A stretch of DNA of 30,149 nucleotides from IMG/VR virus record IMGVR_UViG_3300033512_000421, positions 1 to 30,149 of that record, one strand, 5' to 3'. The translations under genes were made by a program, and so were the position numbers. Positions within the stretch are counted from its first letter, which is position 1. The number at the start of each line of letters is the position of its first letter. Below, in pieces: positions 1 to 30,149 of this stretch. This stretch comes from a virus. Taxonomy: Duplodnaviria; Caudoviricetes. Below the pieces are notes generated by a model. That model saw only the letters and a program-made list of their open reading frames with translations, was not told where the DNA came from and ran no database searches.

Positions 1-1
1 G

Positions 2-58
2 ATTATGGAATTGACTGGTTTAACACAGGGTGAGATTGAAAGTTTGATGCTCAATTGA
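2..58 (+). CDS. 3' end of an Rpn/PD-(D/E)XK family gene (partial, runs off the left edge)
   Basis: Frame 2 reads IMELTGLTQGEIESLMLN*, closely matching the C-terminus of 1767..2687 (IMATTGLTQVEIESMTLN*). Confidence 0.75.
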   Translation: MMELTGLTQGEIESLMLN

Positions 59-71
59 TTGGAAATAGAGA

Positions 72-1028
72 ATGAATGAAACACTACATGATAAAGGCTA
101 TAAACGCTTGTTTTCTAACAAGCTTATTTTTCAGCAGTTAATTACCACTTTTGTGACTGAGGATTGGGTCAAAGAGTGTGATTTTGAGCAGTGCCAAAAA
201 ATTGATAAATCGTTTATTTCCGAGCATTATAAAGAAACCGAAAGTGATATTATTTATCAAGTTAAATTTAAAAACAACAATGCTTATATTTATTTGTTGT
301 TAGAGTTTCAGTCTTCCGTATCGTGGTATATGGCATTACGAATGCTAAACTATGTCAGCAATTTTTACATGGATTATATTGAAGCACATAAAAGCGCGAG
401 AAAATTACCGCCGTTATTTCCGTTAGTTTTATATAATGGGGATGATAAATGGACAGCAGCAACGGATTTTAGAGATTTATTGGAAAAACCTGATTTATTA
501 AAACACTACGCGCCGCAATTGCATTATTTTAAAATTGCGGAAAATGAATATTCAACTGAAAGTTTACTGGAAATTAGCAATTTAGTTTCAACGTTATTTT
601 TAAGTGAAAGAAGTAATGATATTGCGTTAATTAAATCACAATTACTCGCTTTATTTAAGAGCAAGGAAGATAAGCAAGCCATTTCTATTTTATTAAACTG
701 GTTTGTGCAACTTGCTTTGCGCGGCAAAAAATCACGCAATGATTATCAAGAACTGGAACATATTTATCAATCTGAAGAAGAGGCGAAAACCATGTTAGAA
801 ACAACTTTGAATCAGTATGGAAAAACTTTTTTTATTGAAGGAAAAGCAGAAGGAATAGTAGAGGGACAATCAAAAACGTTAATTTTGTTATTGGAGGAGC
901 GTTTTGGGTGTTTATCAGTGAAACAAAAAGAGATGATTTGTCAGTTTAATGAGGCTGATTTTACGCAGGTGTTTAAAAAACTTTTTAGTGTAAAAAGCGT
1001 AGATGAAATTCTTAAAGTTGGTAATTAA
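72..1028 (+). CDS. Rpn family recombination-promoting nuclease/putative transposase (YhgA-like PD-(D/E)XK), long form
   Basis: HDKGYKRLFS start, ESDIIY and LLLEFQS (D...ExQ catalytic motif), MALRMLNY, LPPLFPLVLYNG, and a EGKAEG...LLEERFG C-terminal tail. Confidence 0.9.
   Translation: MNETLHDKGYKRLFSNKLIFQQLITTFVTEDWVKECDFEQCQKIDKSFISEHYKETESDIIYQVKFKNNNAYIYLLLEFQSSVSWYMALRMLNYVSNFYMDYIEAHKSARKLPPLFPLVLYNGDDKWTAATDFRDLLEKPDLLKHYAPQLHYFKIAENEYSTESLLEISNLVSTLFLSERSNDIALIKSQLLALFKSKEDKQAISILLNWFVQLALRGKKSRNDYQELEHIYQSEEEAKTMLETTLNQYGKTFFIEGKAEGIVEGQSKTLILLLEERFGCLSVKQKEMICQFNEADFTQVFKKLFSVKSVDEILKVGN
792..1028 (+). CDS. Putative intragenic RpnS antitoxin (internal in-frame start)
   Basis: GAAGAGG ribosome-binding site upstream of the in-frame ATG at 792 (MLETTLNQ...). 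Internal-start RpnS proteins are established for this family. Confidence 0.6.
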   Translation: MLETTLNQYGKTFFIEGKAEGIVEGQSKTLILLLEERFGCLSVKQKEMICQFNEADFTQVFKKLFSVKSVDEILKVGN

Positions 1029-1030
1029 AA

Positions 1031-1483
1031 ATGTCAGATTATGATGATGGGTTTGAAAAAATTTACCAAACTAAAGAGGAGTTTGAAGCTGCGCTAAACG
1101 AAATAGTAGAGCAGTATCATCAAAATCGTATTATGGATGAAAAAGAGAAGAAGCTAAAGCCAGAAATAAAGCAAAGAAAAATTGAAAGCCCACCTTTTTG
1201 TTCTGATAATGAGGCGAAAACCATGTTAGAAACAACTTTGAATCAGTATGGAAAAACTTTTTTTATTGAAGGAAAGGAAGAGGGAATACAAAAAGGTATA
1301 CAAAAAGGCATACAAAAGGGAAAAATTGAAACATTAATTTTGTTATTAGAGGAACGGTTTGGGTGTTTATCGCTTAAACAAAAGGAAATGATTTGCCAGT
1401 TTAATGAGGGAGATTTTACGCAGGCGTTTAAGCGGTTGTTTAGTATTGAAAGGTTGGATGATATTTTTACAGTGGATGATTGA
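1031..1483 (+). CDS. Orphan Rpn C-terminal (RpnS-like) protein without a nuclease domain
   Basis: From EAKTMLETT onward it duplicates the C-terminus of 72..1028, including the RBS+ATG (ATG at 1223), with extra IQKG repeats. Confidence 0.7.
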   Translation: MSDYDDGFEKIYQTKEEFEAALNEIVEQYHQNRIMDEKEKKLKPEIKQRKIESPPFCSDNEAKTMLETTLNQYGKTFFIEGKEEGIQKGIQKGIQKGKIETLILLLEERFGCLSLKQKEMICQFNEGDFTQAFKRLFSIERLDDIFTVDD

Positions 1484-1503
1484 ATTTGTTGTTTACGCTA
1501 GGG

Positions 1504-1670
1504 AAAACGGACAATGAAAAAATAATCCTGTCCGCATTTTTCCCCCGCCACTGTTTGCACTAACCCTCTAACTATTTTTTAGCTTAACCCTTTTATTGTA
1601 CAGGGATTTCTTATAGACTGAACTCTGAAGTTATGCGCGAATAATTTTGGAAGCAGCGGCTCTGTCAAGT
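1504..1670. repeat. ~167-bp intergenic repeat, copy 1
   Basis: Near-identical to 2693-2860. Begins with the hairpin CGGACA...TGTCCG. Weaker similarity continues to ~1727. Confidence 0.9.
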
Positions 1671-1766
1671 GACAAAATAGCTTAAAAAATAAGCCCCCTT
1701 TTATCAAGTCGTTTTTTGCATCCAAAGATAACAAATTGAAATATAACTAACTTTTGGAGAATAATC

Positions 1767-2687
1767 ATGGCAACTAAAAATAGAAAATTAATTAGTTTTG
1801 ATTGGGCAATCAAGAAAATTTTGCGCAGTAAAGCTAATTTTGAAGTATTAGAAGGATTTTTAAGCGAATTATTGTTTGAAGATATAAAAATTATCGAAGT
1901 TTTAGAATCTGAAAGCAATAAGGAATTTAAAGAGGATAAATTTAATCGGGTGGATATTAAAGTTAAAAACTCTAAAGATGAGATTGTATTAATTGAGATT
2001 CAATATGATAGAGAGCTAGATTATCTACAGCGAATGCTTTATGCAGCCTCAAAAATCATTGTTGAACATATTAAAGAAAGTGAAGCGTATTCAAAAATAG
2101 TGAAAGTTATTTCGATTAATATTCTCTATTTTAATTTTGGTGAAGGCGATGATTATATTTACAAAGGCACGACTTCATTTATTGGATTACATAATCACAG
2201 CAAATTAAAATTAAATCCAAAACAGGTAGAATTGTATAAAACAGACATAGTAGAGGCAATTTATCCTGAGTATTATTTAATCAGAATTAATAATTTCAAC
2301 GATATTGCTAAAGATACTTTAGATCAGTGGATTTATTTTTTAAAAAATGAAGAAATTAAGGATGATTTTAAAGCGAAAGGATTAAATAAGGCGAAAGAGG
2401 TGTTGGATTATTTGAAATGTTCCGAAGAAGAAAAACAAGAATATGAACATTATAAAGAATTATTACATGCTCAAGCGAGTATGTATGAGTCAACTTATGT
2501 AGTTGGAAAAATGGAGGGTGAAAAAAAAGGCAAAATAGAGGGCAAAATAGAGGGCAAAATAGAAGGGAAAATGGAGCGGACTTTGGAAATTGCCAGAGCC
2601 TTAAAAGCACAAAATATTGCGGTGGCGGTTATTATGGCAACTACGGGTTTAACGCAGGTTGAAATTGAAAGTATGACGCTAAATTGA
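1767..2687 (+). CDS. Rpn family PD-(D/E)XK nuclease/putative transposase (second subfamily)
   Basis: FDWAIKKILR, RVDIKV...VLIEIQ catalytic motif, LDQWIYFLKN, 12-bp GKIE repeats and a helix-turn-helix-like tail (TGLTQVEIE). Confidence 0.9.
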   Translation: MATKNRKLISFDWAIKKILRSKANFEVLEGFLSELLFEDIKIIEVLESESNKEFKEDKFNRVDIKVKNSKDEIVLIEIQYDRELDYLQRMLYAASKIIVEHIKESEAYSKIVKVISINILYFNFGEGDDYIYKGTTSFIGLHNHSKLKLNPKQVELYKTDIVEAIYPEYYLIRINNFNDIAKDTLDQWIYFLKNEEIKDDFKAKGLNKAKEVLDYLKCSEEEKQEYEHYKELLHAQASMYESTYVVGKMEGEKKGKIEGKIEGKIEGKMERTLEIARALKAQNIAVAVIMATTGLTQVEIESMTLN

Positions 2688-2692
2688 TTGGA

Positions 2693-2860
2693 AAAACGGA
2701 CAATGAAAAAAATAATCCTGTCCGCATTTTTACCCCGCCACTGTTTACACTAGCCCTCTAACTATTTTTTAGCTCAACCCTTTTATTATACAGGGATTTC
2801 TTATAGACTGAACTCTGAAGTTATGAGCTAGTAATTTTAGGAGCAGCGGCTATGTCAAGT
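2693..2860. repeat. ~167-bp intergenic repeat, copy 2
   Basis: Near-identical to 1504-1670. Weaker similarity continues to ~2921. Confidence 0.9.
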
Positions 2861-3003
2861 CAAGTCAAGAAACAGCTTAAGGGTAACTTACTGTTTGTCA
2901 AGCTGTTTTTTCATCCGAAAGTGGAGAGTGGATAGGTCGTGTTCAGTCACGCAATTTACGCTTTAACACTAAAACAAATTTAATTAATTTTTGGAGATGA
3001 AAA

Positions 3004-3909
3004 ATGGCAACACAATTAACTTTAAGAGCAGGTACAAAACCTGTGGAAGGCGGCGCAAACGGTTCATTTGTAATTGATTTGAGCGCAGCGGCAACATCGG
3101 ATTTAACGGTAAATTTTAATCCCACAGGGACGGCAACACTTGGCACAGATTACAGTTTTAGTTTAACGGTCGGTTCAACCACCACGGCTATTACGGGCAA
3201 TAGTTTTGTACTGCCAACGGGAACGACAACCGCGACTTTAAATGTGATTGCAAAAGCCGATAGCGTCACAGACCCGAATGAAACCGTTACAGTTAATTTA
3301 ATGGCAGGAACAGGTTATGACTTAGCAGGTATGAATACGTTGTTTGCGCCTAAAGTTGATTTTACAGTAGGTGTAGGTTCTCGCTCTGTTAGTGTGGGCG
3401 ATTTCAATCATGATGGAAAACTCGATTTAGCCACAGTTAATTGGTCTAGTGAAACACTTTCAGTTTTGTATCGTAACGATGATAACATTGAAAATAAGTT
3501 CCCTAATAATGCTGGATTTGCTAATGAAGTCCATTTCACAACAGGTGCAAAACCTTATTCAGTTAGTGCGGGTGATTTTAACAATGATTCCTGGCTCGAT
3601 TTAGCTGTCGCCAATAAACATAGTAATTCAATTTCAGTATTTATGGGTAGCAGTAAAGGCTTTTCTACTTCTAGCGAATATGCAACGAACTATTCACCCT
3701 ATTCGGTTACTTCAGGGGATTTTAATCAAGATGGTTTTCTTGACATGGTTACAACCAATTCAAGCGGTGGAATTTCTGTGTTATTAAATAAAGGAGGCAA
3801 TGGCTTTACTAAATATGATTATGCTATAACGGGAAGTGTATATCCTTATTCAGTTACTGTGGCTGATCTCAATGATTGCTTTGTAAATAAGTTGACCTTT
3901 TTTCGTTAA
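3004..3909 (+). pseudogene. Calx-beta plus FG-GAP/VCBS repeat surface protein, truncated by the element insertion
   Basis: Calx-beta-like N-terminus (GTATLGTDY, DSVTDPNETVTVNL) and repeats GDFNHDGKLDLA, GDFNNDSWLDLA, GDFNQDGFLDMV. The fourth repeat breaks at VADLN(D) into unrelated CFVNKLTFFR*. Confidence 0.85.
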
Positions 3910-4135
3910 ATCCCATTTTTAACAATTTTCCCATAAGTCTTTGTTTTTATTTATATCTGCCAAAAAAGAAGTTTAATACAGAACTTTTTTAAAAAGTTGA
4001 CCTAGCTATTTTTAGCGAGCAGTCGAACTTGAAAGAAAGTTGACCTTTGTTGTTTTTATTGCAGTCGAACTTGAAAGAAAGTTGACCTTTGTTGTTTTTA
4101 TTGCAGTCGAACTTGAAAGAAAGTTGACCTTTGTT
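3873..4135 (+). repeat. Putative element terminus with five transposase-binding-site-like repeats
   Basis: AAGTTGACCT at 3889, 3994, 4037, 4079 and 4121. The last three lie in a perfect 42-bp tandem unit (starts 4019, 4061, 4103; third copy 33 bp). TG dinucleotides at 3873 and 3877 coincide with the host-gene break. Confidence 0.8.
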
Positions 4136-5025
4136 TATCCTTCTAAACTCGACAAATACAACTGACTATACTGCTCACTCCCTGTTCCATCCGAACCACT
4201 TTCAAATACATGACACGCCGTCACAATAGCCAACGGCTTTGCTCCTTGAATATCAATCAAATCACCGCCAGCGATTCTTAAATCATAGGCAATTTGAGCT
4301 TTCTTGCGGTGTACTAAGCACCTCCCCATGTTTTGCAGTTGCTGAAGGTTTTTATGTGGCACAAATTGCATTTTACGGGTTTTGTCTTGATTACCGTAAA
4401 TCATTTGCCCAGAGTCATCGGTTGAATAGAACGTAGGGATTTCATGACGCTCTAAAAAGCCACTGTTAGTATTGGACATGGCGTTATCAGGCAAGGACAT
4501 AATAGGCTTTTGTTTAAATAAATCCTGCAAGCGCACAAAAGATAGTTTGCCGTTTTTCCACCGCACCACGCCACCTTGTTCTTGTAAGGCTTGGGCAATA
4601 AGCGCGGTTGGGTAGCTGCCAGAGTAACAATAAAACCGATTGATGGCAAAATCAGAATCAATTGTTTTTAAGGTCGCACCCGTGGCTCTATAAATTTCAG
4701 ACAGCGTGATTTTTTCTTTTACGATAGCTGTTTTTCGTACAAAACCCGCAGTATGCACGTTATCTAAAAACGCCATGATTTCAACAGACTTTTGCTCTTT
4801 TGCGCCTTGCGATTGCCGATTGTTAGCTACCTTTGCTTTTACGATGTAAAACTTATCGCCATTTGCAGCAACTATTTTTCCTTCTGTTAATAGTTTTTGA
4901 AGCCCATCATCAATGCGAATAATAGCATGAAGTGTAGCAGGAATTGGGGCTAGGTCATTGCGTAACACAGCAAGCTTTATCAAGTCACCGCGTAGATTTT
5001 TACCGTCAGATAGGGTGATTATCAT
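4135..5025 (-). CDS. Putative baseplate hub/tail protein
   Basis: 296 aa, beta-rich, in the tail module. Size and layout fit gp27/gpD-like hubs (inference). Confidence 0.5.
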   Translation of the reverse strand: MIITLSDGKNLRGDLIKLAVLRNDLAPIPATLHAIIRIDDGLQKLLTEGKIVAANGDKFYIVKAKVANNRQSQGAKEQKSVEIMAFLDNVHTAGFVRKTAIVKEKITLSEIYRATGATLKTIDSDFAINRFYCYSGSYPTALIAQALQEQGGVVRWKNGKLSFVRLQDLFKQKPIMSLPDNAMSNTNSGFLERHEIPTFYSTDDSGQMIYGNQDKTRKMQFVPHKNLQQLQNMGRCLVHRKKAQIAYDLRIAGGDLIDIQGAKPLAIVTACHVFESGSDGTGSEQYSQLYLSSLEG

Positions 5026-6578: not shown

Positions 6579-6630
6579 TTGACGTGTGACAGTCACAGAG
6601 TGTATTCTATATCTACTGTGACAGTCACAG
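6579..6630 (+). promoter_or_regulatory. Sigma70-type promoter with two palindromic operators TGTGACAGTCACA
   Basis: TTGACG (6579-6584), 18-bp spacer, TATTCT (6603-6608). Identical 13-bp palindromes at 6585-6597 and 6617-6629. AGGAG RBS at 6648. Confidence 0.8.
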
Positions 6631-6660
6631 CTATTTTAATACTTTTTAGGAGTAACAATA

Positions 6661-8052
6661 ATGAGTAAAAATAAAAAAGTGAAAAAGGCGATGAAAAAAG
6701 CAATGTCTGGGTTATTAGCTGCTTTTCCTGATAAAAACGAGCAGGATTTAGTTGACAATAAGGTTTATGAAAATGAAAAATACAAAGGGTTGGATTTCCC
6801 TGTTCTGCACACGGTAGAAGCGGATGTGGCGCAAACCCATTATTTTGCTATCAGAAAAGACCCTGCAAAACCGATTAGTTCCGCTGTGGATTGTTGCTTT
6901 ATCAATTGTATTCAGTTTTACGATTTAGGCTCACGCAGACTAATGGCGATTAATGGCTGTTTTGGTGAAAGCTATGAAAATTCGGTGGATATTTTTAATA
7001 AATTCATTTTGGAAAACCAGTTTACTGAAACGGGCATCGGAATCAAATTAGGTAACTTGAACGGTTTTTTAAATCTACAGTGTTGCATAAAAGAGATAAA
7101 TAAGCGGTATGCACAACCCGATGGCTTTGCTTTTTTAGAGGATTACGCAAGAGCTGGAACACTCAAAGATAACGCGCATTTAGACAGTTCGCGCCGCGCT
7201 TTTTGCATATTTGAGCTTTCGGTTATTGAGTATTATAAAAAGCATAACAAAGTGGTAGGGACATTCAAAAGACGTAGAAGCAACGACTCACTTTTTGCAC
7301 AATACGAAGTTACTATGATAGATATATCGCTGGAGGAGTTTAAAGAAAGCGGACTTTTAGAAGAATATCAGAGCAAACACAATAATAGCAATCATCGGTT
7401 TGCTGAAAACGGGTGGCAAAAAACCTGGATTCCCAATGTTAAGTATGACGCGCACTTGAAACTACATCCTGTTTTTAATTTTACCGAAGAGGATGCGCTT
7501 AGAAACAGTGTTCTTGGGTACACAAAACAAAAGGCAGTGGTCAACAAAGAGGGATTAATAACCTTTGAGAAATTGAGGTATTCAGTTCCACAAGATGCTG
7601 ACTTTAGCCGCACAAACCCAACCCCTGTTTATATATGCAATATAGGGAATGGGTTGTTAGCTGTTTTTTCAGTGGTAAACGAGCAATTTATTTGCTATGC
7701 CACTGTATCAAAAGCTGCTACGCTAATGGCTTCAAAATACGAAGCAATCAAAGCCGTAGTAGCAGTAAGTGGCGCGTACAGAGCAATTTGTAAGCAATTT
7801 GAGAAAATCGCCTTGCCGATTAATGAAAAAGTGTTAAAAGACTTGGTAGAGCAAGGGCTAACTAATGAGATTGTAGCAACCATTCTTGCAAACAATCCTG
7901 ATGTAAAAACAGATGGCGGCTCTGATAAGAACGGGCGTAGATGGCTCTATTTTTGCATGAACGCAAAGGATATATTATGGCAACTCCAGCTTGCGAAAGA
8001 AAAAAATCCTCCCGTAAACGGCGGTCTCACAACGGGTTGTTTAGAGCTGTAG
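6661..8052 (+). CDS. DDE transposase/integrase-like protein: catalytic core plus Mu-C-like domain, apparently inactive and lacking an N-terminal DNA-binding domain
   Basis: VEAD55, FYDLGSRRL (D..SR motif of rve cores), KLG131NLNGFLNL at the DNG-like position, KDNAHLD175SS at the K...E position, Y..KHN..NH, and VNKEGLITFEKLRYSVP. Confidence 0.7.
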   Translation: MSKNKKVKKAMKKAMSGLLAAFPDKNEQDLVDNKVYENEKYKGLDFPVLHTVEADVAQTHYFAIRKDPAKPISSAVDCCFINCIQFYDLGSRRLMAINGCFGESYENSVDIFNKFILENQFTETGIGIKLGNLNGFLNLQCCIKEINKRYAQPDGFAFLEDYARAGTLKDNAHLDSSRRAFCIFELSVIEYYKKHNKVVGTFKRRRSNDSLFAQYEVTMIDISLEEFKESGLLEEYQSKHNNSNHRFAENGWQKTWIPNVKYDAHLKLHPVFNFTEEDALRNSVLGYTKQKAVVNKEGLITFEKLRYSVPQDADFSRTNPTPVYICNIGNGLLAVFSVVNEQFICYATVSKAATLMASKYEAIKAVVAVSGAYRAICKQFEKIALPINEKVLKDLVEQGLTNEIVATILANNPDVKTDGGSDKNGRRWLYFCMNAKDILWQLQLAKEKNPPVNGGLTTGCLEL

Positions 8053-10645: not shown

Positions 10646-12286
10646 TTAAATCACCAATGTTTGAGTGCAGTAAATTTGCCGTGTTGTTCCAACAAAGCAG
10701 GGCCAGTAATCGACAACAATTGCATCAATCAGCGTCCCATGAGGCATAACACGGTATTCAAAAAAATCTTTGCTAAATGAGGTCTCTTTAGGCGGTACAA
10801 CCCAGTCAGCGGCGCGTAAATCGGCTCGCATTTGATGCAAAAACTCACTCATTTCGGAGACTGCCACATCAATTGGTTTCTGCGCTAAATCTTTACTGCG
10901 CCGCGTAATGCGGTCATCAATATCAACTGACATATCAATAACCGCCGTGAGTTTTTTCAAGCTGTTATCGACCAACGCCCCTGTCAACGAATCAAAGAAG
11001 ACATAACGCTGTCCACCCGTGTAAGTTTCGCTGATAACGGGGTTGATTTTTGCTCGTGCTAAGTCATTTTTATCTTGTCCGGATAACTGGACAACTTGCG
11101 TTACAGCGCGGCGGTTTAGTGGAAAATCTTTACCCGCCACTGGATAATTTTTAGGCGCATATCCCCGTGCATTTTTTACCGCATTGCGTGCGCAGGCATA
11201 GGCAATATTCAGGGTCGCTGTGCCTAAAAACCCCTTGCCGTTTACGCCTGTGGGGTCTTGTGATTTTAACGGTGTCCAATATGACCATACCAAGTGAGAG
11301 CTATTAAAATTGCCACCGATATTAAGCTGCTCATAAAAAGCAATTGCCGCTTCTTTGCTTAACCCACCATACACATCAAACGGCATTGGCTTGTTAGTTT
11401 CATACGCCAGTTGAATAAATTGTGCTAATAGGGCTGGGGACTGTGTGCCGCCGGACGAAATGTAACCAAAATTAAACGGCGTAGTTTGTAATGCAGTTCG
11501 GGCGGCAATGTAATCGGCTGTCGTATAGCCCGTCCCCCCTTCGTCAAAGCAAACCAGCACCGGTGAACTTGCCCAATTCGGCAAGCCCGTTTCGTTATAA
11601 CCGTAAGCAGGCGAATTGGCGGCAATTTCGGTAATCGAATCCCATGTATAAACTTCAACGGCATCGGTTTGATTGGCGACTAAATTGGACAAATAGTTGG
11701 TTTGCTGGTAATCATCCAAACTGTCAGGGTTTAACGAGCCGGTAAAATCAAACAGCGGTAAATTATCTTTGTCTTTAATGCGTAAATTAATCTTGTCATT
11801 CGCAACTGACATACCGCCGACACGTTTTTCTTCAACGTGAATTTCACATTTGATGCCATCGTTAAAGCACTCTAAGTGCTTGATAGCAATTAAAAAAGGC
11901 GTTGTCGGTAATGTGTCGGTTACTGACCAAACAATCGGGTCTGAGGTCGTTGTGCCTAGCCGAGCTACCGCATATTTAATCACCGCTGCACTGGTAATTA
12001 AGCGTTGCACAATGGCTTCATACGCGCCGTTGTTTAATGCCTCAACGATATGCACCCACGCTTCATTCAGCATAGACACGCGCATCGCTTCGCCCTTGCC
12101 AATTTTTGCCTGATAATTGCCCTTATTGACTTTGAAAGGCTTGTCAATGCGTCCGCGTGTTAAGCGGCACATCGTGGCAAATTGCTGGTCGTAATTATCC
12201 GCTGTGGGGATTTCAGAGTTATCGCGTAAGGGGTTTAATTGCACCCCCGATTCCGCGTTAAGTTGTCGTGTAAAAGAAGCAGCCAT
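10646..12286 (-). CDS. Contractile tail sheath protein (P1 gp22-like)
   Basis: 546 aa. N-terminal SGVQ...RGRIDKPF, PVAG, LARAKINPV and a C-terminal 'YWPCFVGTTRQI' strand. Adjacent to the capsid gene as in P1. Confidence 0.8.
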   Translation of the reverse strand: MAASFTRQLNAESGVQLNPLRDNSEIPTADNYDQQFATMCRLTRGRIDKPFKVNKGNYQAKIGKGEAMRVSMLNEAWVHIVEALNNGAYEAIVQRLITSAAVIKYAVARLGTTTSDPIVWSVTDTLPTTPFLIAIKHLECFNDGIKCEIHVEEKRVGGMSVANDKINLRIKDKDNLPLFDFTGSLNPDSLDDYQQTNYLSNLVANQTDAVEVYTWDSITEIAANSPAYGYNETGLPNWASSPVLVCFDEGGTGYTTADYIAARTALQTTPFNFGYISSGGTQSPALLAQFIQLAYETNKPMPFDVYGGLSKEAAIAFYEQLNIGGNFNSSHLVWSYWTPLKSQDPTGVNGKGFLGTATLNIAYACARNAVKNARGYAPKNYPVAGKDFPLNRRAVTQVVQLSGQDKNDLARAKINPVISETYTGGQRYVFFDSLTGALVDNSLKKLTAVIDMSVDIDDRITRRSKDLAQKPIDVAVSEMSEFLHQMRADLRAADWVVPPKETSFSKDFFEYRVMPHGTLIDAIVVDYWPCFVGTTRQIYCTQTLVI

Positions 12287-17037: not shown

Positions 17038-17064
17038 CAGTCGAATTTTAAAAATAGTTGACCT
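17038..17064 (+). repeat. Internal copy of the terminal repeat motif
   Basis: CAGTCGAATTTTAAAAATAGTTGACCT versus terminal CAGTCGAACTTGAAAGAAAGTTGACCT: 23/27 identical. Confidence 0.8.
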
Positions 17065-20672: not shown

Positions 20673-21650
20673 TTACCTCTGTAACTCTATAAATGCCCTG
20701 ATAAATTCAGCCGCAACTTGCGGCACGATGGCATTGCCATAGCCTTTCAACCGCATTACCCGCGCTTCTTGCGTTTCGTTGGGATTTGTCGGTGCGCTAC
20801 TATCGCTGCTGTACACCATTCCTTTGGGTAGCCCATTAACCAGCGGCTTAATGCTGGGTTCAATTGCCCTGTACTTACCGTCTCGGCAGTATAGCCAGTC
20901 TGGGTTATCCCATTCACAGGTACTTGGTCTTTTAAATTGGCGCAGCCACCCTGTGAACTTGAAAGGGCTTGGTCTGAGCGAATTGGTAGATTGTCCATTG
21001 CGTTGGGCGTTCCCCAGCCTGTCATTGTTGTTGCAATAACCGATAATTCGATGGATTTTCCAATTTTTATCCTGCGCTGAATACAAGGGTCTGTCCATTT
21101 CCCTCTGTCTCTGTTGTCGCTGGATATTGGCGTTGGAAAACCTGTTTTTGGCAACCCAATACAATCTTTGTCTTTGATGGAATGAGTTGACGCTGTGTGC
21201 GCCCAATACACAGTACCCAACGGCGTAGTTTTCTGCTTCCATTGCTGCCTGTAAATCATCGAGCCATCCGTGCCTAATCGCTGCTTCAACTTGTTCACCA
21301 AAGAGAGTGTCAGGTCGGCACTGCTTAACAAGTTCAAGGAAGTGGGGCAATAAGTGCCTTTCGTCTGCTTTGCCTTGCTGTTTTCCTGCGGTGCTAAAGG
21401 GCTGACAAGGCAAGCTGACTGTCCAGACGGGTTTATCATCTTGCCAGTTTGCAAGCCTGAGTGACCTTGACCAACCACCAATACCCGCGAAGAAGTGGTG
21501 TTGGGTAAATCCATAAAGGTCGCTTGCTTGTACGTTAATGATTGAGCGTTCATCTACTATTCCATTGGCTATCAGGCCTTGTTTGATTAATTCGCGTAGC
21601 CATGCGGCGGCGTTGGGGTCAAATTCGTTGTAATAAGCGGTCATCATCAA
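20673..21650 (-). CDS. DNA (cytosine-5) methyltransferase, alpha-type polypeptide
   Basis: FFAGIGGW (motif I), LPCQPFS (IV), GEQV (VI), HQRQRLYWV (VIII) and LKGYGNAIVPQVA (X). Motif IX is absent in this frame. Confidence 0.9.
   Translation of the reverse strand: MMMTAYYNEFDPNAAAWLRELIKQGLIANGIVDERSIINVQASDLYGFTQHHFFAGIGGWSRSLRLANWQDDKPVWTVSLPCQPFSTAGKQQGKADERHLLPHFLELVKQCRPDTLFGEQVEAAIRHGWLDDLQAAMEAENYAVGYCVLGAHSVNSFHQRQRLYWVAKNRFSNANIQRQQRQREMDRPLYSAQDKNWKIHRIIGYCNNNDRLGNAQRNGQSTNSLRPSPFKFTGWLRQFKRPSTCEWDNPDWLYCRDGKYRAIEPSIKPLVNGLPKGMVYSSDSSAPTNPNETQEARVMRLKGYGNAIVPQVAAEFIRAFIELQR
20756..21553 (-). CDS. Overprinted alternative-frame ORF: putative beta polypeptide of the C5 methyltransferase
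   Basis: 265 open codons inside the MTase gene, with repeats GFPTP/GWGTP and motif IX-like GQLNPALSRWLMGYPKEW. Start uncertain. Confidence 0.7.
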   Translation of the reverse strand: MNAQSLTYKQATFMDLPNTTSSRVLVVGQGHSGLQTGKMINPSGQSACLVSPLAPQENSKAKQTKGTYCPTSLNLLSSADLTLSLVNKLKQRLGTDGSMIYRQQWKQKTTPLGTVYWAHTASTHSIKDKDCIGLPKTGFPTPISSDNRDRGKWTDPCIQRRIKIGKSIELSVIATTMTGWGTPNAMDNLPIRSDQALSSSQGGCANLKDQVPVNGITQTGYTAETVSTGQLNPALSRWLMGYPKEWCTAAIVAHRQIPTKRKKRG

Positions 21651-24326: not shown

Positions 24327-24611
24327 CTATAGACTATAGAACAATGACTCTCTTAGGTCTTTTACAGAGCAGTTATAGCCTCGCGCCTGTTCGTCATCAG
24401 TAAAGATAAGGTCACGGATTAACTCCCTGTCGAATGTATCACCATCAAAGGGCGCGTTGGGTTTATCAGCTTTGCGTTTATAGATGGCTTTTATCAGTTC
24501 TTCTTTGCTTACGGTTCGCATAGGGTACATTCCATTTTCGCCGTAGTAACTGTTAAAGTATTGTAAAAAAACATTAACATCGGTACAGTCAATTACGTTG
24601 TTTTCGTTCAT
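24327..24611 (-). CDS. Hypothetical protein
   Basis: Coupled (TAATG) to the HTH gene, with a GGTG RBS. Confidence 0.65.
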   Translation of the reverse strand: MNENNVIDCTDVNVFLQYFNSYYGENGMYPMRTVSKEELIKAIYKRKADKPNAPFDGDTFDRELIRDLIFTDDEQARGYNCSVKDLRESLFYSL

Positions 24612-25042
24612 TATTCACCACCTGATTTTAATAATTTTCCATAATAAACACTTTTTCCAGTTAAGCTGTCTATTACATTCCATCCTACAGGATTGCGCTC
24701 TACAAGCATATCTGCTGCCATTTTTGCTTTTTCTAAATCTTCATATTCCAATGGCATATAAAGAGATGATAATCCGCAATAGGCTCTGTTTTCATAAATC
24801 CTGCTGGATTTTATGATGTGGTATCTTGTATTTTTGTTTTCTGCCAACCATTCAAGGCAAAACTGCACGATGTAAGGACATTCAAGCACATTATTTGCCG
24901 CTCGATTGGCAATATATTTGCGCAATGTACGCGGTTCTATGTCGAGTAAAACCGCTATTTTATGTTGCGACAAGCCTATTCTTTCAATTAAACCCCGTAA
25001 ATAAGCGGGGTCAGGGTTGTGATTTTTTGGGTCAAAGTTCAT
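24611..25042 (-). CDS. XRE-type HTH transcriptional regulator with an extra C-terminal domain
   Basis: HNPDPAYLRGLIERIGLSQHKIAVLLDIEPRTLRKY...PYIVQFCLE. Confidence 0.8.
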   Translation of the reverse strand: MNFDPKNHNPDPAYLRGLIERIGLSQHKIAVLLDIEPRTLRKYIANRAANNVLECPYIVQFCLEWLAENKNTRYHIIKSSRIYENRAYCGLSSLYMPLEYEDLEKAKMAADMLVERNPVGWNVIDSLTGKSVYYGKLLKSGGE

Positions 25043-26222: not shown

Positions 26223-26393
26223 ATGCAAATTGAACTCATCCGCCGTGAGTTGTGCCTGAATCAAGACCAGCTTGCGGAAGTTTTAGAGGTGAATAGGTCA
26301 ACGATTGCGAACATTGAAAAACGTAATAAAGTCAAAAAAACTCAAGAGTTGGCTATTAAGTTTTTGCAATATGAGCATAACAATTTAAAATAA
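26223..26393 (+). CDS. Small XRE/Cro-like HTH protein (56 aa, not in the ORF track)
   Basis: MQIELIRRELCLNQDQLAEVLEVNRSTIANIEKR... is a canonical HTH pattern. Confidence 0.8.
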   Translation: MQIELIRRELCLNQDQLAEVLEVNRSTIANIEKRNKVKKTQELAIKFLQYEHNNLK

Positions 26394-30148: not shown

Positions 30149-30149
30149 C

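Follow-up and report, generated by a model that had tools for sequence, protein, structure and literature searches.

P0001, the protein encoded at positions 6661-8052 (+) of the window (the whole stretch of viral DNA that was analyzed, 30,149 nucleotides long), is a copy of a Mu-type transposase that lacks the end-binding domain and two catalytic residues. The pattern of its changes suggests that it has probably been retained under selection, a conclusion drawn from one locus only. The frame is open over 463 codons and has a strong ribosome-binding site (AGGAG at 6648-6652 (+), 8 nt 5' of the ATG), as the original prediction had it. Taking the reading frame, an AlphaFold model, Foldseek comparisons, and an alignment of homologues together, the gene is predicted to encode an N-terminally truncated protein of the MuA/TnsB fold, made up of an unrelated segment (residues 1-43), an RNase H-like core with D55, G131, and D175, a beta-barrel at about residues 287-350, and a helical C-terminal region.

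The AlphaFold model has a pLDDT of 84.7, and its best Foldseek matches are TnsB (E 5e-10) and the MuA core (1bcm, E 1e-8). In a structural alignment, residues 44-350 of the model superimpose on residues 258-560 of the MuA core (1bco) with a Z score of 16.3 and an rmsd of 4.2 over 250 aligned residues. An RNase H-like core followed by a beta-barrel is predicted, consistent with the rve/Mu-like core that had been proposed from motifs. Sequence-based searches with P0001 were less revealing: Pfam returned only a sub-threshold match to the Mu C-terminal region (E 0.03), searches of PHROGs, PADLOC, and PDB sequences gave nothing useful, and an atlas search was uninformative, with leads below 0.9 that pointed to HTH families.

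The homologue alignment bears out both of the triad substitutions that had been read from the sequence. Position 131 is G in P0001 and D in all homologues (45/45 and 52/52 in two overlapping sets), while position 175 is D in P0001 and E in the same sets (again 45/45 and 52/52). D55 is retained, in a column that is D in 51 of the 52 homologues and a gap in the other. The triad reads D-G-D instead of D-D-E, and P0001 does not have the intact triad of MuA/TnsB-type transposases. D175 is also read in an identical contig from run X1, possibly the source sample; among the matches listed, no identical contig covers codon 131. P0001 might still be an enzyme, an altered nuclease that uses D55, D175, and a substitute acid, and the retained D55, the conservative E-to-D change, and a fold predicted to be intact are compatible with this. 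However, there is no acidic residue at positions 124-159 of the translation, the nearest being E123 and E160, and eleven conserved sites near the triad have been lost. We consider remaining nuclease activity of this kind highly improbable.

The missing N-terminal DNA-binding region is equally clear in the alignment, where homology begins at residue 44, equivalent to residue 295 of the intact relative P0002, and about 295 N-terminal residues are absent. Residues 1-43 match nothing that was tested, there is no remnant of the lost part upstream of the gene, and the new N-terminus is predicted to form a basic helix. Upstream of the gene lies a sigma-70-like promoter match (9/12; 6579-6608 (+)), which taken alone is not above chance, as the window holds five matches of that grade and 4.7 are expected. 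A 13-bp palindrome, a putative operator, is located inside the promoter spacer (6585-6597), and a second putative operator follows at a distance of 32 bp, shortly beyond the predicted start (6617-6629). Both are perfect palindromes of the sequence TGTGACAGTCACA, a pattern picked after it had been seen, which does not recur elsewhere in the window with two or fewer mismatches and occurs at 0 of 193 loci. From this anatomy we infer that P0001 would be expressed from its own repressible promoter. Two small HTH-like genes, at 26223-26393 (+) and 24611-25042 (-), are candidates for proteins that bind the palindromes.

To what family does this protein belong? A first homologue search with P0001 found three proteins of 689-709 aa, the best of which was P0002 with 64% identity, and profile searches gave 426 and 111 matches. 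P0001 and P0002 are sisters in the tree (support 100), P0002 is intact, and P0002-matching DNA is present in run X1, the same mat run. No second full-length dead copy was found among the 426 and 111 matches as far as they were inspected (53 aligned), and no P0002 homologue was found in 50,697 phage records or 72,556 plasmid records. Scans of viral, metagenome, and genome sequences yielded no loci for P0002, another dead copy, or the DNA-binding fusions described below. The family is present in 2 of 401 Methylococcales-order genomes, none with a dead copy. All eight phage-type loci listed (L001-3, L008, and L086-89) are, as judged from motifs, Mu-like prophages with the order repressor, A, ATPase, and Mu-type late genes, and no dead second copy was found near the A gene in those inspected. 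The other 76 genome loci (L009-L084) are mostly from Desulfobacterota. IS-like loci, of which 11 pairs were compared, are multi-copy and have TG ends, an A-rich repeated site, and 6-bp duplications; the elements are about 4.3 kb long where both ends were caught (e.g., L009 8286-12597) and encode a 560-aa MuA-like transposase. The transposase ancestry that had been proposed can now be tied to a named parent family, the MuA-type proteins found in Mu-like prophages and in IS-like elements related to them. Because these loci are of the Mu-like prophage and IS-like kinds, P0001 derives from a working MuA-type family of which it is not itself a working member.

Some further features of this family were also observed. 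Three Mu-like prophages of the family (L001 2439-2579, L008 8852-8948, and L086 1-180) have tandem arrays of 14-18-bp repeats just past the repressor gene, with a different motif in each. In addition, two proteins with distant cores (P0150 and P0155) have C-terminal regions that by eye resemble those of P0002 and P0001, suggesting domain exchange.

Several tests bear on whether P0001 has been kept or is decaying. Its branch in the tree is 4.5 times longer than that of P0002 (0.41 vs 0.09), and a run X1 contig agrees with P0002 at every one of the 21 differing codons; the 29 of its 42 differences that are listed give a pS of 0.78 and a pN of 0.15, with multi-hit codons classed roughly. Under neutral decay, 60-127 missense changes would be accompanied by 3.5-8.5 stop codons and none was seen (P 0.03-0.0002), given a nonsense-to-missense ratio of 0.06-0.07 and the assumption that the excess changes postdate inactivation. 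In the 52-homologue alignment, conserved sites have been lost at 11/31 positions in three catalytic segments vs 6/59 elsewhere (p=0.009, for segments drawn after the losses were seen). Within the core, the catalytic segments have taken radical changes and the remaining positions conservative ones (p=0.027); changes are not clearly conservative in the barrel (p=0.12) or in the C-terminal region, domain III (p=0.26), where the 39 differences at residues 351-440 are no more conservative than random. Finally, the only hint of a second allele is a 151-nt contig of depth 2 and 90% identity that has no listed change at codon 131, with a pN of 0.11 and a pS of 0.12. It may represent a second dead allele; alternatively, the motif may be intact in it through five changes that are not listed.

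A captured or duplicated transposase fragment that was recently freed from selection, with a stop codon yet to come, would account for part of this pattern. The single locus, the long branch, the equal pN and pS against the sibling contig, the random-looking changes in domain III, and the loss of 8/38 nearly invariant sites all fit such a relic. Against it stand the missing stop codons, the indels relative to P0002, all of which are in frame, the clustering of losses at the catalytic motifs, the 23 identical residues at 260-282, and the presence of a ribosome-binding site and paired palindromes before the new start. We regard decay as rather unlikely. The exaptation suggested in the original prediction is upheld to the extent that the selection tests favor retention over decay, while domain III and the restriction to one locus speak against it.

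A second feature, absent from the original prediction, which was correct on the fold, the triad loss, and the truncation, is a transposon end of the P0001/P0002 family at 3873-4134 (+). It has a terminal TGATTGCT and five AGTTGACC sites at about +13, +118, +164, +206, and +248, the last three inside 42-bp tandem repeats. The end cuts an FG-GAP repeat gene that is likely of host origin (3004-3909 (+)) inside its fourth DxNxD-type motif, and the preceding six bases, TCTCAA (3867-3872 (+)), are predicted from the 6-bp duplications of relatives to be the target duplication, of which the window holds one copy. Run X3, which belongs to a different study from the run with the best match, contains an identical contig (3793-4059) that spans the junction. 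The closest comparison is a 38-kb Mu-like prophage with an intact family member in a Methylobacter genome, both ends of which begin with TGATTGCT, are flanked by the 6-bp duplication TTTGAT, and have a repeated AATAGTTGGACG site. The first bases of the window end are identical to those of the Methylobacter left end (11/11), the sites at +13, +118, and +164 match the spacing of its right end (near +14, +120, and +169), and the tail genes point toward the 3873 end just as they do in the Methylobacter prophage. The host junction at 3873 thus has a terminal TG and repeated transposase sites, as seen at one end, since the window breaks off within the prophage, at 30149. Scans for the end motif yielded 87 and 2 loci, all with proteins unlike those of the window, and the motif was found in 0 of 5 partial Mu-like records; because these wider scans added none, the match rests on one reference prophage and the looser IS-like ends. 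As judged from sequence, the prophage ends at 3873 in a family-type transposon end.

Other readings and occurrences of this end were considered as well. An iteron or integrase arm-site array at 3873-4134 was set aside once the Methylobacter ends matched, and a similar 8-mer in L001 counts for little, since the 11-mer matches that locus five times with one mismatch. Mu-family ends were also recorded at 8722 in L008 and at 10764 (-) in L191. A contig in runs X3 and X4 (depth 11.9 in X4) matches window positions 3963-4000 with 6 differences and then continues into different DNA, which suggests that other related ends are present in the mat.

The DNA differs between the two sides of this junction. 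Positions 1-3900 are host-like, with Rpn-type and FG-GAP genes and a lower GC content, and positions 4135-29960 (-) contain a P1-like virion module with protease, portal, tape-measure/transglycosylase, gp23-like capsid, sheath, PmgG, tube, and tail genes. Capsid, sheath, PmgG, tube, tail, and portal proteins have 38-65% identity to those of Xanthomonas phage Rb1 or Ideonella, in similar order. The tail gene (phrog_1390; 4135-5025 (-)) stops 5 nt from the innermost end site, and in 5/5 relatives with that stretch it is followed by a baseplate/spike-like gene, whereas the window has the transposon end and host-like DNA there. The P0001 gene is oriented against the late genes, between the tube gene and a phrog_9371 gene, and the slot before the tube gene is taken by other genes, lysis included, in Rb1, Ideonella, and G097 (L006, L007, and L184). 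A set of 13 queries, three of them B, detected no homologue of A, B, repressor, or ner in the window, and intact A and B genes were not found in the 26 kb of prophage covered. Plasmid replicon or partition genes were not detected among the 33 ORFs scanned of this incomplete genome, which is joined to host-like DNA. That the phage is transposable is a possibility that we place slightly short of even; alternatively, a Mu-like end may have been joined to a P1-like prophage by deletion, giving a possibly defective hybrid. Elsewhere in the window, positions 1-2860 hold three Rpn/PD-(D/E)XK genes whose C-terminal parts are duplicated, with a 154-bp repeat after two of them, and a cytosine methyltransferase is encoded in two overlapping same-strand frames (20673-21650 and 20756-21553).

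The region that P0001 lacks is found in another gene of the same prophage, which the original prediction also did not include. P0179 (15783-16760 (-)) is a Rha domain fused to the transposase-family DNA-binding region, with 40% identity to P0002 residues 140-279 (E 2e-19). A copy of the end-array site (22/26; 17038-17063 (+)) is located about 12 bp upstream of a promoter match for this gene (TTGACA-17-TAAGAT), while the best matches in 30 shuffled windows have 8-10 mismatches. If the site is bound, it would tie the transposon end to the phage's own regulation. The same DNA-binding domain is joined to KilA-N in P0219 and to an antirepressor-like N-terminus, which we read as Bro-N, in P0165 and P0173, and it stands alone in P0178, so that the partners of the end-binding domain are Rha in the window and KilA-N or Bro-N in relatives. 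In a tree that took in 25 of 27 proteins, these five domains, free or fused, group together as a clade that excludes the 20 transposase domains (support 99), which indicates that capture of the DNA-binding domain was separate from, and older than, the origin of P0001. A recent fission of one gene into the P0001 core and the Rha fusion is ruled out by this separate clade. The P0219 linker is identical to that of the Rha fusion, and P0219 and a capsid protein (P0228) are each encoded on a 7235-bp contig; the linker and contig suggest a sibling phage with an N-terminal swap.

What could a protein of this kind do for the phage? By analogy with the Tn5 inhibitor, we tentatively propose, with somewhat less than even confidence, that P0001 is retained as a brake, under separate control, that acts on a P0002-type transposase. 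The subunit, which would fold but neither recognize the ends nor catalyze, would trap the intact enzyme and thereby block transposition. The target might be the enzyme of the prophage itself, so that the lysogen would stay in place, or an enzyme brought in by a relative, in which case the brake would provide immunity. This would imply that a P0002-type enzyme, with its gene outside the contig, mobilizes the prophage or mobilized its ancestor, and the Rha fusion would act in parallel at DNA sites. The brake is weakened by the way in which MuA assembles: domain I binds the ends and subunits reach the end sites through it (PMC3145075), so a subunit without domain I may be kept out. A fuller scenario, which we consider doubtful, is a transposable phage with a P1-type virion and P0002-type MuA integration that has domesticated the family twice, once as a dead-core poison and once as an antirepressor-type fusion occupying the ends and its own promoter.

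Other functions could be served by the same retained fold. P0001 may join the transpososome as a helper subunit that does no catalysis, or it may be an accessory protein with which the prophage binds DNA non-specifically; the selection signal is the same as for the brake, the new N-terminal helix is predicted to be basic, and 2/4 MuA subunits are described as non-catalytic and as supplying domain III-alpha for assembly (PMC5357137). However, the same source has DNA-binding domains place these subunits, and P0001 is without them, nor do the inspected Mu-like loci have a dead second copy near A. A helper role is in our view unlikely. A decoy for the B ATPase appears less probable again, indeed very unlikely: here the free C-terminal region would strip MuB-like filaments from DNA and so confer target immunity. 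That region is retained in P0001, an ATPase-like gene (labeled from motifs) follows A in Mu-like loci, and monomeric MuA, by way of its C-terminal region, triggers MuB ATP hydrolysis and DNA release (PMC5357137). Nevertheless, the changes at 351-440 look random, and a 300-residue core would not be needed for such a task.

Truncated transposase inhibitors and domesticated nucleases are already known. In the open-access literature, our search found no report of a stand-alone dead MuA in a phage and none of a transposable phage with a P1 virion. If the brake is real, it would be a phage-encoded stand-alone inhibitor of a MuA/TnsB-type transposase made from the enzyme itself. It would serve in defense or in locking lysogeny, in either case directed at transposition, and would offer tools based on TnsB a natural design for an off switch. 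The presence of a transposon end of this family next to P1-like virion genes likewise suggests that a large myovirus head is compatible with integration in the manner of Mu. As an intact sister, an end sequence, and a candidate binding site are all at hand, a direct test is possible.

Compared with MuA and the TnsB proteins of Tn7 and CAST elements, P0001 shares the predicted RNase H-like core and barrel (Z 16-18), and its intact relatives are found in Mu-like prophages before an ATPase-like gene, with TG ends and repeated sites. In contrast to these enzymes, P0001 has 12-15% identity to them, lacks the end-binding domain, reads D-G-D, and is encoded among P1-like virion genes with no B/TnsC ATPase gene adjacent. 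Phage Mu makes 5-bp target duplications, whereas the relatives of P0001 make 6-bp ones. The window shares its head and tail genes with P1-like phages (Punavirus, Xanthomonas phage Rb1, and the Ideonella and Methylococcales prophages) and differs from them in the transposon end and host-like DNA after the tail gene. Tn5 Inh is a truncated form that poisons the transposase; it is made from a start within the transposase gene itself and keeps an intact triad. Like Inh from Tn5/IS50R, P0001 is a transposase form without the N-terminal DNA-binding region of its cognate enzyme, but it belongs to another family and is encoded separately, by a diverged gene that has a mutated triad and its own putative promoter. 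Tn5 makes a proposed trans inhibitor, and mutating residue 56 removes its synthesis (PMC2632911). Regulators have also been made from domesticated mobile-element enzymes in other systems. TldR and Paramecium PgmL are domesticated mobile-element enzymes that have lost catalysis and kept the scaffold or DNA binding, and PLE CapR, used as a regulator, is reportedly another (PMC8096241). Those proteins come from other enzyme families, and what sets the window prophage apart from them is that it has both a dead core and a free DNA-binding domain of one family.
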